DNA of 64,000 bases from Caldilineaceae bacterium bin5 (GTDB taxonomy: Bacteria > Chloroflexota > Anaerolineae > Caldilineales > Caldilineaceae): positions 45,599 through 109,598 of the forward strand of contig MPML01000008.1 in the NCBI GenBank assembly GCA_002238445.1, written 5' to 3'. The translations under genes and the position numbers were made by a program. Below, piece after piece: positions 5,405 to 53,195 of the stretch. The notes under the pieces were generated by a model, which had not been told where the DNA came from, searched no databases, and worked only from the letters and a program-made list of their open reading frames with translations. How positions within the stretch are numbered: position 1 is the first letter of the stretch; every line of letters starts with the position of its first letter.

Positions 5405-5575
5405 GCCGCGAAGAACACCTTTTTTGTCCACGAAGGGCCACTAAGGGCCGCGAAGAACACCTTTTTATCCACGAAGGGCCGCTAAGGGCCGCGAAGAACA
5501 CCTTTTTATCCACGAAGGGCCACTAAGGGCCGCGAAGAACACCTTTTTATCCACGAAGGGCCGCGGAGAAAGCCA
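5405..5575. repeat. intergenic tandem repeat, 41-42 bp unit x 4 plus a partial fifth
   Basis: GCCGCGAAGAACACCTTTTT(A/TG)TCCACGAAGGGCC(A/G)CTAAGG starts at 5405, 5447, 5488 and 5529. Units are contiguous with no spacers. The array begins 2 nt after the stop codon of the 4663-5403 gene. Confidence 0.9.
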
Positions 5576-8027: not shown

Positions 8028-8395
8028 GCCTAAGCGGGTCTTGGGGATGAGGGTTAGGGAGGACCTACTTCGCCGCTGCCACCATTCAGACTTTCTTCAT
8101 AGCATTCCTGGTTGGCCGCAGCTACCTTGCTTGAGCCGCACTGCTGCGACAGAAGCGTACCGTTCGTGAGGCATGGTTTTGTAGGGGGGCGTTGCGGGGG
8201 CGCAGCCCCTGCACAAGGGAGGGCCGAAGGCCCGACCGCCCATAGACTAGAAGAGAGTAAGGAGAAGTGAGGAGAGAGTAAACACCTTCGACCGCCTTGG
8301 TTTGGGTCGGGGATGCCGGTTGCGGCCAGGCCGAGACGGGCGGCTGCGTTGGGAAAAGCAGGTTTTCGGAGTTAACGGCAGGAATCAGAAACTCG
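8028..8395 (+). repeat. MITE-like repeat, copy 2 (degenerate ends)
   Basis: Core at 8172-8241 is near-identical to the other copies. Left arm (CCATTCAGAC...GTGAGGCATGG) and purine-rich right arm (GAGGAGAGAGTAAACA) are collinear with copies 1, 4 and 5. Termini have diverged, so the boundaries are approximate. Confidence 0.5.
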
Positions 8396-21124: not shown

Positions 21125-21475
21125 TTCAGTGTAGCATACGAAATTTAGTGTAGCATAACACGAATTTGTCGACAATTGCACTGTTTTGGCGGGTCTTGTC
21201 CCCGATTTTGGGGCATAAGTGACAGAAGGTGTGGTGCAGCCGCGCGTGCGCCTCCTGCGAAGGACTGGGGAAGGTGGCGGGAGACTCGTGCGGCGGCGGG
21301 GCGTGTTTTTGGAGGGGGCGTTGCGGGGGGTGTCCCCCCGCACAAGGGAGGGCCGAAGGCCCGACCGCCCAGATGAGAGACAGTGGGTGGGCAGATTGAG
21401 TGAATGGCATGGAAGGGCGTGAATGACAGAGGCGCGGGGACCATTTGGGGAGGCGTCATGGGGCGGTAGTTTTCC
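21125..21475 (+). repeat. MITE-like repeat, copy 3 (most diverged)
   Basis: Core at 21304-21370, TTTTTGGAGGGGGCGTTGCGGGGGGTGTCCCCCCGCACAAGGGAGGGCCGAAGGCCCGACCGCCC, has compensatory changes in hairpin 1. The arms are only loosely alignable, so boundaries are approximate. Confidence 0.45.
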
Positions 21476-32038: not shown

Positions 32039-32236
32039 GGTAAGAACATACCAGAGCGGCAAAGTAAAGTCAACGATTCGGGGAGGGAGGGGCTGCGTTG
32101 CCGCTGGCTGCTCTGCTAGCCGTCGCGGCAACCGCTCGGCCCGCGCTTGGGTCTTCGGCCAGCAGCGGGAGTGACACAGGCAAGCGCAGGGGCATGGTTA
32201 GCGGGGGCAGCGGAAGCACCTTCAGATAGAAGAACC

Positions 32237-32536
32237 GTAACTACTAAGCCACATACAATGTCTGTCTTGACCAGCTCTTCTTCGCCGCGGCCATTCAGGC
32301 TATCAGATAGCCTATTCGGATGGGAGCGGCCAGGTTGCTGGAGCCGCGCGGCTGACCTGAATTCGTAAGGTCAGTGAGGCATGGTTTTGGAGGGGGGCGT
32401 TGCGGGGGCGCAGCCCCTGCACAAGGGAGGGCCGAAGGCCCGACCGCCAAAATACTACTCAAGAGGAGCGAGAAGAGGGTAAACGGCTTCGCTCGCCTGG
32501 TCGAGGGTTGCGAATTGACTGCGGCTGAGTAGCTAC
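32237..32536 (+). mobile_element. MITE-like repeat, copy 4 (300 bp) with TIRs and a perfect 8-bp target-site duplication
   Basis: Termini are GTAACTACTAAGCC... and ...GGCTGAGTAGCTAC (inverted). The element is flanked by GAAGAACC at 32229-32236 and again at 32537-32544. Core at 32380-32448. Confidence 0.75.
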
Positions 32537-32619
32537 GAAGAACCCTTTATCCCGAAACATACGGTTGGGAATATAGGGGGCACTTCTTCACCGGCGACAG
32601 GTTGGTTCAAGAGTACTGT

Positions 32620-37908: not shown

Positions 37909-38187
37909 GCAGGATGCTCCTGAGCTGTGGGGGGAGGAAGCGGTGCGCGCAAAGTCGGCCTGTGGCATGCTGCCAAGGGGGTGAACGCGTCGATTATTTG
38001 GTTAAGCGCGAGAGAGACAGCGAAACTGATCGGGGATAAGGATGGTATAAATCCGGGTTCAGGAGGGATATCATCCATGGATTAGATCGCAGACCGGGGC
38101 AGATTGATGTCTGCGCACATTGTATCACAAGGTAGCGGGTTGTCCAGAAGAGAAGTTTTCTTTAGTGGAGTGTTAAAGAAAGAGGAG

Positions 38188-38303
38188 GTTGGCAGCGGTC
38201 TACTCTCACACGGGGTCGCCCCCGCACTACCATCGACGCTGGTGGACTTTACGACCGGGTTCGGGATGGGACCGGGTGTTTCCCCACCGCTCTTGCCACC
38301 AAC
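38188..38303 (-). rRNA. rrf: 5S ribosomal RNA
   Basis: The reverse complement reads GTTGGTGGCAAGAGCGGTGGGGAAACACCCGGTCCCATCCCGAACCCGG...GAGAGTAGACCGCTGCCAAC, with the conserved CCCATCCCGAAC and GAGAGTAG blocks and a terminal helix. Confidence 0.85.
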
Positions 38304-38486
38304 TCCTCTATTCTTGCACGGTTATGATGCGAGTGGATGTTGTGCATATTGTGGTATTTGTCGTGGCCGCTGCGTTCTGGTGCAGGGGCGCTGGCAAAGG
38401 TCCACTCGCATGGGCACAGCAGATATATTGACACACTAAGAACTGAACAGGATTGAGAAGTACTGCTTTAGGCGCAAGATACACAC

Positions 38487-41425
<2,939 letters not shown>

Positions 41426-41678
41426 TGCTGTGTGTCGAATACAACGACCTCGCAGCCGCTGCATTCCTTCCTACTCCTACAGCAGTTCTTCTCTATCCTA
41501 TTCAGTTCTTAATGTGCCATTCCTGCTGGACTACTTTACTACTTGCTCTGCAACCTTCTGGCAGACGGCCGGCCGATTGACTTCCGACCTTCCGCATTGT
41601 TCCAGCCGGGCCTGTCAGGGCCTTGGCTTGCTGCCATCGTCAGCGTTTGCGAATTCTGCTTGCTTTTGCTTAACGAGG

Positions 41679-41752
<74 letters not shown>

Positions 41753-41897
41753 ATTCCACTTGCCCTTTTGATGCAACAGAGGCACGTTAACCCCTGAAAA
41801 GTGGCAAGATAGTCGTATCCTGTGCAAACCTTGCTGCTGCAGACGTTTCTGTTTCTACAACGGCTTTGCCGTCTCCACAGTGACGTCCGGTCTTCCT

Positions 41898-43422
<1,525 letters not shown>

Positions 43423-50596: not shown

Positions 50597-50822
50597 ATGG
50601 TATCGGGCGACTCTTCTGATGGCGGCGCTTTCCTGTGCCAGCTGGGGGCCTATTGAATTGCTTGCTCCCCGGCTTCCACGGCTTGCGATCATGATCTCCG
50701 TTCTTGCAGACAGGTCCCGGTGTAGAGATCGGTGTAAAGATCATTGGCCTTCTTTGGCGTAGGGGGTATCATTAAAAGAATTCACTCTTTTGATTGATGG
50801 CCCACAACAACCTACTTTTGCT

Positions 50823-52902: not shown

Positions 52903-53195
52903 GTAAGTACTAGGCCACATACAGTGTCTTTCTTATCCAGCCCTTCATTCCCGCCGCCATTCAGACTATGTCACAGCGTATTCGGTTGGCAACCGCCGGG
53001 TTGCCGAGGCAGCACGGCTGCGCTGAAGACGTAAGGTCGATGAGGCATGGTTTTGGAGGGGGGCGTTGCGGGGGCGCAGCCCCTGCACAAGGGAGGCCGC
53101 TTGCGGCCGACCGCCCAAATGCAAGGAGAGAGTAAACAACTCCGCTCGCCTTGCTCGAGGACAGGGATGCCGGTTGCGGCGTTCGATTTGCGGCA
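52903..53195 (+). repeat. MITE-like repeat, copy 5 (right terminus apparently truncated)
   Basis: Left end GTAAGTACTAGGCCACATACAG (52903-) and core 53046-53115 are collinear with copies 1 and 4. Hairpin 2 is the GGCCGCTTGCGGCC variant shared with copy 1. The right TIR was not found after TGCGGC (53189-53194). Confidence 0.55.

Follow-up and report, generated by a model that had tools for sequence, protein, structure and literature searches.

A probable miniature transposon family with a slowly changing core and skew-linked orientation in a sponge-associated Caldilineaceae genome

The window analyzed here, a stretch of 64,000 nucleotides (C43:45599-109598) from the 120-contig, 5.55-Mb assembly of a sponge-associated Caldilineaceae genome, contains an rRNA operon (5S, 23S, tRNA, 16S; 38187-43422, - strand) and five copies of a dispersed repeat, all on the + strand. 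A sequence-only reading had placed five copies of a putative miniature transposon (MITE) at these positions, and re-examination of the window bore this out. Copy 4 (32237-32536, +), which has a minus-strand gene on each side, is a full-length element of 300 bp and matches positions 1-293 of an nhmmer profile built on 56 full copies; aligned together with their flanks, these 56 copies show sharp boundaries for elements of this type. The copy begins with GTAACTACTAAGCC (32237-32250) and ends with GGCTGAGTAGCTAC (32523-32536), and the octamer GAAGAACC stands in identical form on its left (32229-32236) and right (32537-32544), giving inverted termini of 14 bp and confirming the perfect 8-bp target-site duplication that had been read from this copy. 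Just upstream, 110 nt (32093-32204) are replaced by 9 nt (ATGGTCCGC) in DNA contigs from two sponge runs (X6 and X13), a strain-level indel adjoining copy 4.

The other copies are preserved to different degrees. Copy 1 (214-521, +) is a full-length MITE; its termini are GCAACTACTAAGCC and GGCTGAGTAGTTAC, its flanks, GACTTTTT and GTTTTTTT, match at 6/8 positions, and its core lies at about 366-428. Copy 5 (52903-53180, +; profile positions 1-282) retains the left terminus GTAAGTACTAGGCC, a core at 53063-53115 and a decayed right end. Both copies carry the allele CCGCTTGCGG at the second of the two core hairpins described below. Copy 2 (8068-8326, +; profile positions 41-282) is a 5'-truncated, decayed MITE, in which about 40 nt of the 5' end are gone and arm identity is 0.70, with the core (8189-8240) at 100%. 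Copy 3 (21294-21381, +; profile positions 136-224) consists of the core only, with a compensated hairpin-1 allele, GGGGGG-TGT-CCCCCC, and flanks bearing no relation to the MITE arms. Indels among the copies preserve no reading frame in common, in agreement with the initial reading. That reading was also correct in finding no transposase in the window, which for IS66-type DDE transposases holds for the whole assembly.

Across the 5.55-Mb genome, nhmmer located about 490 loci, of which 180 have both ends plus the core and about 420 have the core; 75/490 touch contig ends. A local segmental duplication is thereby ruled out as the source of the similarity. Intergenic placement, claimed for the window copies, extends to 483/490 loci by codon-model gene calls. 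The consensus is 293 bp long and non-coding, most full copies measuring 285-308 bp, and its 14-bp terminal inverted repeats (TIRs; GTAACTACTAAGCC ... GGCTGAGTAGTTAC, 13/14 complementary) lie at sharp alignment edges. Flanking 8-bp duplications are the rule: among the 153 full copies with placeable termini, 7-8 of the 8 flank bases match in 106 and all eight in 64; when the left flank was shifted by 10 nt as a control, 0/153 copies had at least 7 of 8 matching. The duplicated target is roughly symmetric (S-W6-S) and, at 43% GC in a 60% GC genome, represents AT-rich intergenic DNA. Spacing between copies has a coefficient of variation of 0.75, a value biased by truncation at contig ends. Our literature search found no paper describing this MITE family.

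A search of this genome for terminus pairs 0.4-6 kb apart yielded no autonomous copy; matching duplications occurred only in variants of 446-621 bp. Such variants, for example C43:18551-19031, C15:134430-135050 and C106:36698-37143 with duplications CTTATCGG, GGAATGTG and AGGCCGCC, have the termini of the MITE and have apparently taken up extra internal repeat material.

Comparison with relatives revealed filled and empty sites. We compared flanks in this genome with loci totaling about 1.5 Mb on six complete chromosomes of related Caldilineaceae (MAGs; OZ220684.1, OY759723.1, OZ244843.1, OX638330.1, OZ242287.1 and OY282376.1) and found 49 insertions shared, 9 in the relative only and 5 in our genome only. 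The empty sites that the sequence-only reading had proposed to look for exist: at three clean sites the relative has the order 8-mer, MITE, 8-mer, and our genome a single 8-mer. One of them lies in the window, where a single GAATTCAC (50778-50785) is orthologous to a 285-bp MITE with GTGAATTC on each side in OX638330.1 (locus L077, 4962-5246). The copy-4 insertion was found in DNA runs of several sponge species and is therefore old.

The relatives also supplied the autonomous element that had been suggested as a search target. Every full-length match to the IS66 DDE domain (PF03050) in four relatives, G003-G006, in which this domain is multicopy, belongs to an insertion sequence (IS) of 1550-1569 bp with the MITE termini, GTAACTACT(A/C)AGCC, and 8-bp duplications, which are perfect in most copies (GCCAAAGA, ACTCTGCT, GTAGTCAG, TTATTTTA, CTAAAAAC); G003 (OZ244843.1) has four IS copies. 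PF03050 was not found in our own genome (G000), G001 (OZ220684.1) or G002. A single ORF fills the IS and encodes a transposase of 483-515 aa (in G003, 483 aa counted from the first ATG). The protein has DDE_Tnp_IS66 (PF03050, E 4.5e-44), zf-IS66 (PF13005, E 1.8e-11) and DUF6444 domains and shares 44-48% identity with annotated IS66-family transposases from cyanobacteria and Candidatus Chlorohelix. IS66-family elements generate 8-9-bp duplications and have ends beginning GTAA (ISfinder); we took the GTAA... ends together with the 8-bp duplication as a lead to this family, and the IS indeed has an 8-bp duplication and ends starting GTAA. It lacks the tnpA-tnpB-tnpC arrangement of classical IS66 and, with 1.55 kb, one ORF and DDE_Tnp_IS66 plus zf-IS66, matches the single-ORF ISBst12 group of the ISfinder classification. 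By its sequence features, the partner thus belongs to the single-ORF branch of IS66.

The MITE shares nothing with the ISBst12-like IS beyond the 14-bp termini and a subterminal piece of 54 nt. MITE positions 12-65 are 81% identical (E 1.6e-10) to the subterminal 54 nt of the IS right end, from which they derive; compared with the IS, this piece is inverted relative to the adjacent terminus. MITE positions 66-279, about 210 bp that include the core of about 60 nt, have no counterpart in the IS. Mobilization of the MITE by the IS is suggested by the shared termini, the shared duplication length and the co-occurrence of the two elements. Copy number, duplications, empty sites and autonomous IS all speak for the DDE-type MITE first proposed from the window. 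We consider it highly probable that the repeat family is a real miniature transposon, a non-autonomous DNA transposon of about 293 bp, and on sequence features the element conforms in every respect to a bacterial MITE.

The family appears to differ in activity between genomes. Four 307-bp MITE copies in G003 (C1, 214850, 729405, 1437959 and 3662097) are 100% identical, which points to recent transposition; G003 holds the IS, and the family therefore seems to be still moving where the IS is present. In our genome, full copies have a median nearest-neighbor identity of 92%, and the arm identity of copies to the consensus is mostly <0.9. Neither this genome nor its two closest complete relatives have the IS, and the approximately 490 copies here are therefore, as judged from their sequences, an orphaned and aging population.

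The internal core (32389-32449 in copy 4, +) is predicted to fold into a three-way junction, the minimum-energy fold of the + strand with DNA and RNA parameters alike. The predicted helices are P1, GGGCG/CGCC(A) in copy 4 and GGGCG/CGCCC in the general description of the core; hairpin 1 (P2), GGGGGC-GCA-GCCCCT with a UUGC/GCA.A extension; and hairpin 2 (P3), GGGCC-GAA-GGCCC. The RNA folding z-score of the + strand is -2.5, and that of the - strand -1.15. Over about 410 copies, core positions 155-214 have a conservation of 0.97-1.00, the allelic positions of hairpin 2 excepted, and the arms a mean identity to the consensus of 77%. Because consensus identity confounds age with subfamily, we turned to 45 pairs of orthologous copies, each occupying the same site in our genome and in a relative. 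Here the arms diverge by 12.4%, the flanking 400 nt by about 7%, the core as a whole by 4.5% and core positions 161-190 by 1.2-3.1% (core versus arms, Fisher p 4e-34), indicating that the core is, by these substitution rates, under far stronger constraint than the arms.

The hairpins of the core change in an unusual way. Hairpin 2 differs as a whole allele (GCCGAAGGC, CCGCTTGCGG or GCGCTTGCGC) in 15/41 orthologous pairs and is always perfectly paired; hairpin 1 shows a whole-allele difference in about 5/41. In pair 61, the copies are about 97% identical elsewhere and differ by the hairpin-2 cassette only. Among 33 diverse cores, 96% of the cells hold a standard pair. Covariation is seen at two pairs only, from C-G to G-C in 7 sequences and from G-C to C-G in 9 sequences; one further pair (25-39) alternates between G.U and G-C, and helix P1 is invariant and so devoid of covariation. 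The hairpin-2 allele swaps are not point mutations and can be explained by short-tract ectopic gene conversion, which would also help to hold the core uniform. As a rough estimate, about one conversion occurred per pair while neutral sites diverged by 12%. This rate seems too low for a 4-10-fold slower change of the core, and we therefore infer purifying selection as well. The uniformity of the core thus probably reflects both purifying selection and ectopic gene conversion in short tracts between copies; the argument for selection comes from rates, part of which gene conversion alone could explain.

The core also occurs in other repeat contexts devoid of MITE arms; in one of them, GACACGTTGCTGGGGAAGAATGAACACGGTGGCTAGCC precedes the core and AACTGCAGT(GGTYAGT)n follows it. 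Core-only loci such as C21:74389-74513, C41:9146-9241 and C54:215039-215141 are mosaic arrays of (GGTYAGT)n tracts and AACTGCAG units, a BIME-like architecture distinct from the MITE. A covariance model of the core found it in 29/32 sampled genomes of the genus in very unequal numbers, with three genomes lacking a match and several others having 1-9 matches among 41 scored candidates; the same model did not find the core in 89 genomes of 24 other genera of the order. Rfam 15 at gathering scores detected only rRNA and tRNA in the window, and for copy 4 at E up to 10 nothing credible. Scans found no promoter-like or terminator-like consensus and no fixed distance of copies to neighboring genes.

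In sponge metatranscriptome contigs, the summed depth of the core reaches about 2000, and the arm-to-core ratio is equal to that of DNA runs. From the gene-to-core ratio of the DNA runs, single-copy genes are expected at 1-2x in the metatranscriptome, and their coverage is none. Given the DNA-like ratio and this low expected gene depth, genomic DNA at about 1-2x suffices for the core signal. The sequence-only reading had suggested RNA data as a check on transcription of the copies; the core is indeed present in metatranscriptome contigs, but the signal is explicable by a trace of genomic DNA.

The uniform orientation noted among the window copies proved to be a genome-wide feature that follows GC skew, one orientation being used nearly always within a contig. 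We computed skew with the elements masked and scored a copy as co-oriented when its + strand, with the G-rich core, lay on the locally G-rich strand. Co-orientation was found for 412/490 loci (binomial p 7e-56) and for 357/403 loci at |skew| > 0.04; at this threshold, it held for 114/136 full MITEs and 55/58 core-only copies. On contig C54, a switch in orientation coincides with a change in the sign of the skew. With the age of the copies, the bias shows a weak and non-significant trend only. In the six related genomes, 110/126 copies are co-oriented overall and 99/106 at strong skew. Genes, by comparison, are divided about evenly (2003/4033 on the G-rich strand). Most gene-length classes have 47-54% of their members on that strand and the 2-3-kb class has 38%; what had looked like a surplus of long genes on the C-rich strand was discarded as a score-threshold artifact. 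A weaker and separate bias, independent of skew (Fisher p 0.89), concerns the downstream gene, which lies on the element's strand in 249/357 copies with a called downstream gene.

Observations that bear on which strand is the leading one point in different directions. The G-rich strand is rich in T as well, and rpoBC, the S12-EF operon and the L14 operon lie on it, which fits the usual rule for leading strands. The rRNA operon of the window, on the other hand, lies opposite to the regional GC skew and to all five MITE copies; if the G-rich strand is the leading strand, this operon is head-on to replication. In G003 (640-880 kb), a diffuse maximum of the cumulative skew coincides with a + to - change in element orientation, and dnaA is located about 140 kb from this maximum and 100-250 kb from the change. 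By the usual rule, a cumulative-skew maximum marks the terminus. In G001 (about 1.96-2.2 Mb), dnaA likewise lies near a skew maximum and 100-250 kb from a + to - switch of the elements. In none of five genomes inspected was dnaA at a sharp skew switch, and no DnaA-box cluster was found near dnaA in G003 or G001.

Polarity extends to other repeats. At window positions 5421-5564, a 41-nt tandem unit, TTTTTGTCCACGAAGGGCCACTAAGGGCCGCGAAGAACACC, represents another dispersed repeat family, and the words CCACGAAG, CACGAAGG and AACACCTT of this unit are the most strand-skewed 8-mers genome-wide. With the most skewed 8-mers falling in other repeat families, the MITE is not alone in its replication-linked polarity. 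A KOPS- or Chi-type word in the core was considered and rejected: no 7-mer or 8-mer is exceptionally skewed outside the elements, the skew of core words does not exceed the prediction from base composition, and the top skewed words come from other repeats. Compared with KOPS/SRS and Chi, the elements show the same order of density (about 1 per 12 kb) and co-orientation (about 85-90%), but KOPS/SRS and Chi are motifs of 5-8 bp, and the element is confined to one genus.

We favor an account in which the IS66-family transposase of relatives would move the MITE via the common 14-bp termini, giving rise to 8-bp duplications, while the core of about 60 nt would be kept uniform by purifying selection plus ectopic short-tract conversion. 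The orientation bias would arise largely at or soon after insertion and would then be reinforced by loss of oppositely oriented copies, the likely reason being that the replication fork may tolerate a structure-forming G-rich strand on one template strand only.

A reading that partly overlaps with this account, and that we regard as a real though not a leading possibility, is that the core is a functional module of the host or the element for which the MITE is only one vehicle, acting as a strand-specific three-way junction in single-stranded DNA or RNA at the replication fork or in transcripts. Conservation of 97-100% over about 410 copies and across species, a 4-10 times slower change of the core than of the arms in orthologous copies, and pairing that is always kept in the hairpin alleles are consistent with such a module. 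Moreover, the core occurs in arm-less contexts, and the copies in these contexts are the most strongly oriented (55/58); the G.U to G-C change at pair 25-39 and the z-score of -2.5 favor the + strand, on which the downstream gene also lies in 249/357 copies. However, limitation to one genus (29/32 genomes, and 0/89 elsewhere) argues against an ancient or essential function, and the core has no Rfam match, no promoter or terminator consensus and no fixed gene distance. Genomic DNA traces can account for the RNA signal, and gene conversion could mimic constraint.

It is also conceivable, if rather doubtful, that the transposition machinery reads the replication fork and thereby sets the bias at insertion; contact with the beta sliding clamp, which has been proposed for several IS families, would be one way of doing so. 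An IS survey found orientation trends in many families and attributed them to beta clamp contacts (PMC3971601); in the same survey, IS66a has a leading-strand tendency and IS66 TnpB and TnpC carry beta-clamp-binding motifs, but IS66b shows no orientation bias (PMC3971601). Polymorphic insertions, presumably the younger ones, are already co-oriented in 11/14 cases (shared insertions, 40/49). On the other hand, copies of the autonomous IS, the youngest insertions, are co-oriented in only 10/16 cases, the strongest bias is found in core-only copies outside the MITE, and other repeat families of the genome are polarized too. The bias seems to be present early and is not obviously a property of the transposase; with the IS at only 10/16, the data do not support the notion that the transposase imposes it, and the polymorphic sample is small.

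Two further readings have very little probability. One is transposition of single strands, with the element either a PATE derived from IS200/IS605 or a REP/BIME for which a RAYT acts as transposase. The strong orientation with skew and the conserved hairpins recall such systems, as do the abundance of intergenic hairpin repeats and the mosaics with other repeats, and IS200/IS605 elements are themselves oriented with replication (PMC3971601). However, the MITE has TIRs and is regularly flanked by 8-bp duplications, which are not a product of Y1 transposition, no Y1 (PF01797) or RAYT transposase was found in the genome, and its four TnpB genes are not beside any copy; the duplications and the matching DDE IS contradict a PATE or REP/RAYT identity. 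The TnpB-like genes, at C13:28298, C18:28098, C85:1319 and C60:20862, are intact (372-406 aa), with no Y1 in the assembly. The other, a small RNA gene family or local segmental duplication rather than a mobile element, draws on the intergenic position, common strand and predicted folding of the copies, and is contradicted by the empty sites, the duplications, the dispersal of some 490 copies and the existence of an autonomous element with matching ends. The element is neither a REP nor a PATE, and it is no described RNA.

Set beside the bacterial MITEs chosen for comparison from a review (PMC3184786) and general knowledge, namely Correia/NEMIS of Neisseria, ERIC/IRU, RUP, Nezha and Chunjie, the family is alike in being short, non-coding and intergenic with hundreds of copies, in its TIRs, fixed-length duplication and predicted fold, and in its likely dependence on a related IS transposase. 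In contrast to these families, its internal core is far better conserved than its termini and recurs in repeats of other types, orthologous copies differ by swaps of entire hairpin alleles, and 84-95% of its members, depending on the copy set, stand in one skew-relative orientation. A constrained core with swapping hairpin alleles and the replication-linked polarity are therefore the properties that set the element apart from the ordinary. Our literature search returned no report of skew-tied orientation for DDE-type MITEs, and we know of none.

A stronger version of the module reading, which we put forward only as speculation, holds that the 60-nt junction core may be a strand-specific module, acting on single-stranded DNA at the replication fork or as RNA, that was spread through the genus by MITEs and mosaic repeats and kept by selection plus targeted short-tract conversion with interchangeable hairpin cassettes. 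Were this so, the core would be a genome element of a new, replication-polar kind, with a DDE transposon as its means of delivery.

For practical purposes, the family breaks short-read assemblies and should be masked or modeled when sponge-symbiont Chloroflexota genomes are annotated. A MITE is in itself routine; the interest lies in the combination of orphaning, slow core, allele exchange and polarity, in a DDE-type MITE orphaned here and apparently active in sister species, whose core changes several times more slowly than its termini and whose orientation, unlike that of genes and of the parent IS, is tied to replication-associated asymmetry. If this polarity is due to a folded G-rich strand, the family would provide hundreds of natural replicates per genome for studying template-strand tolerance and, under the same condition, for studying how ectopic conversion homogenizes dispersed repeats.
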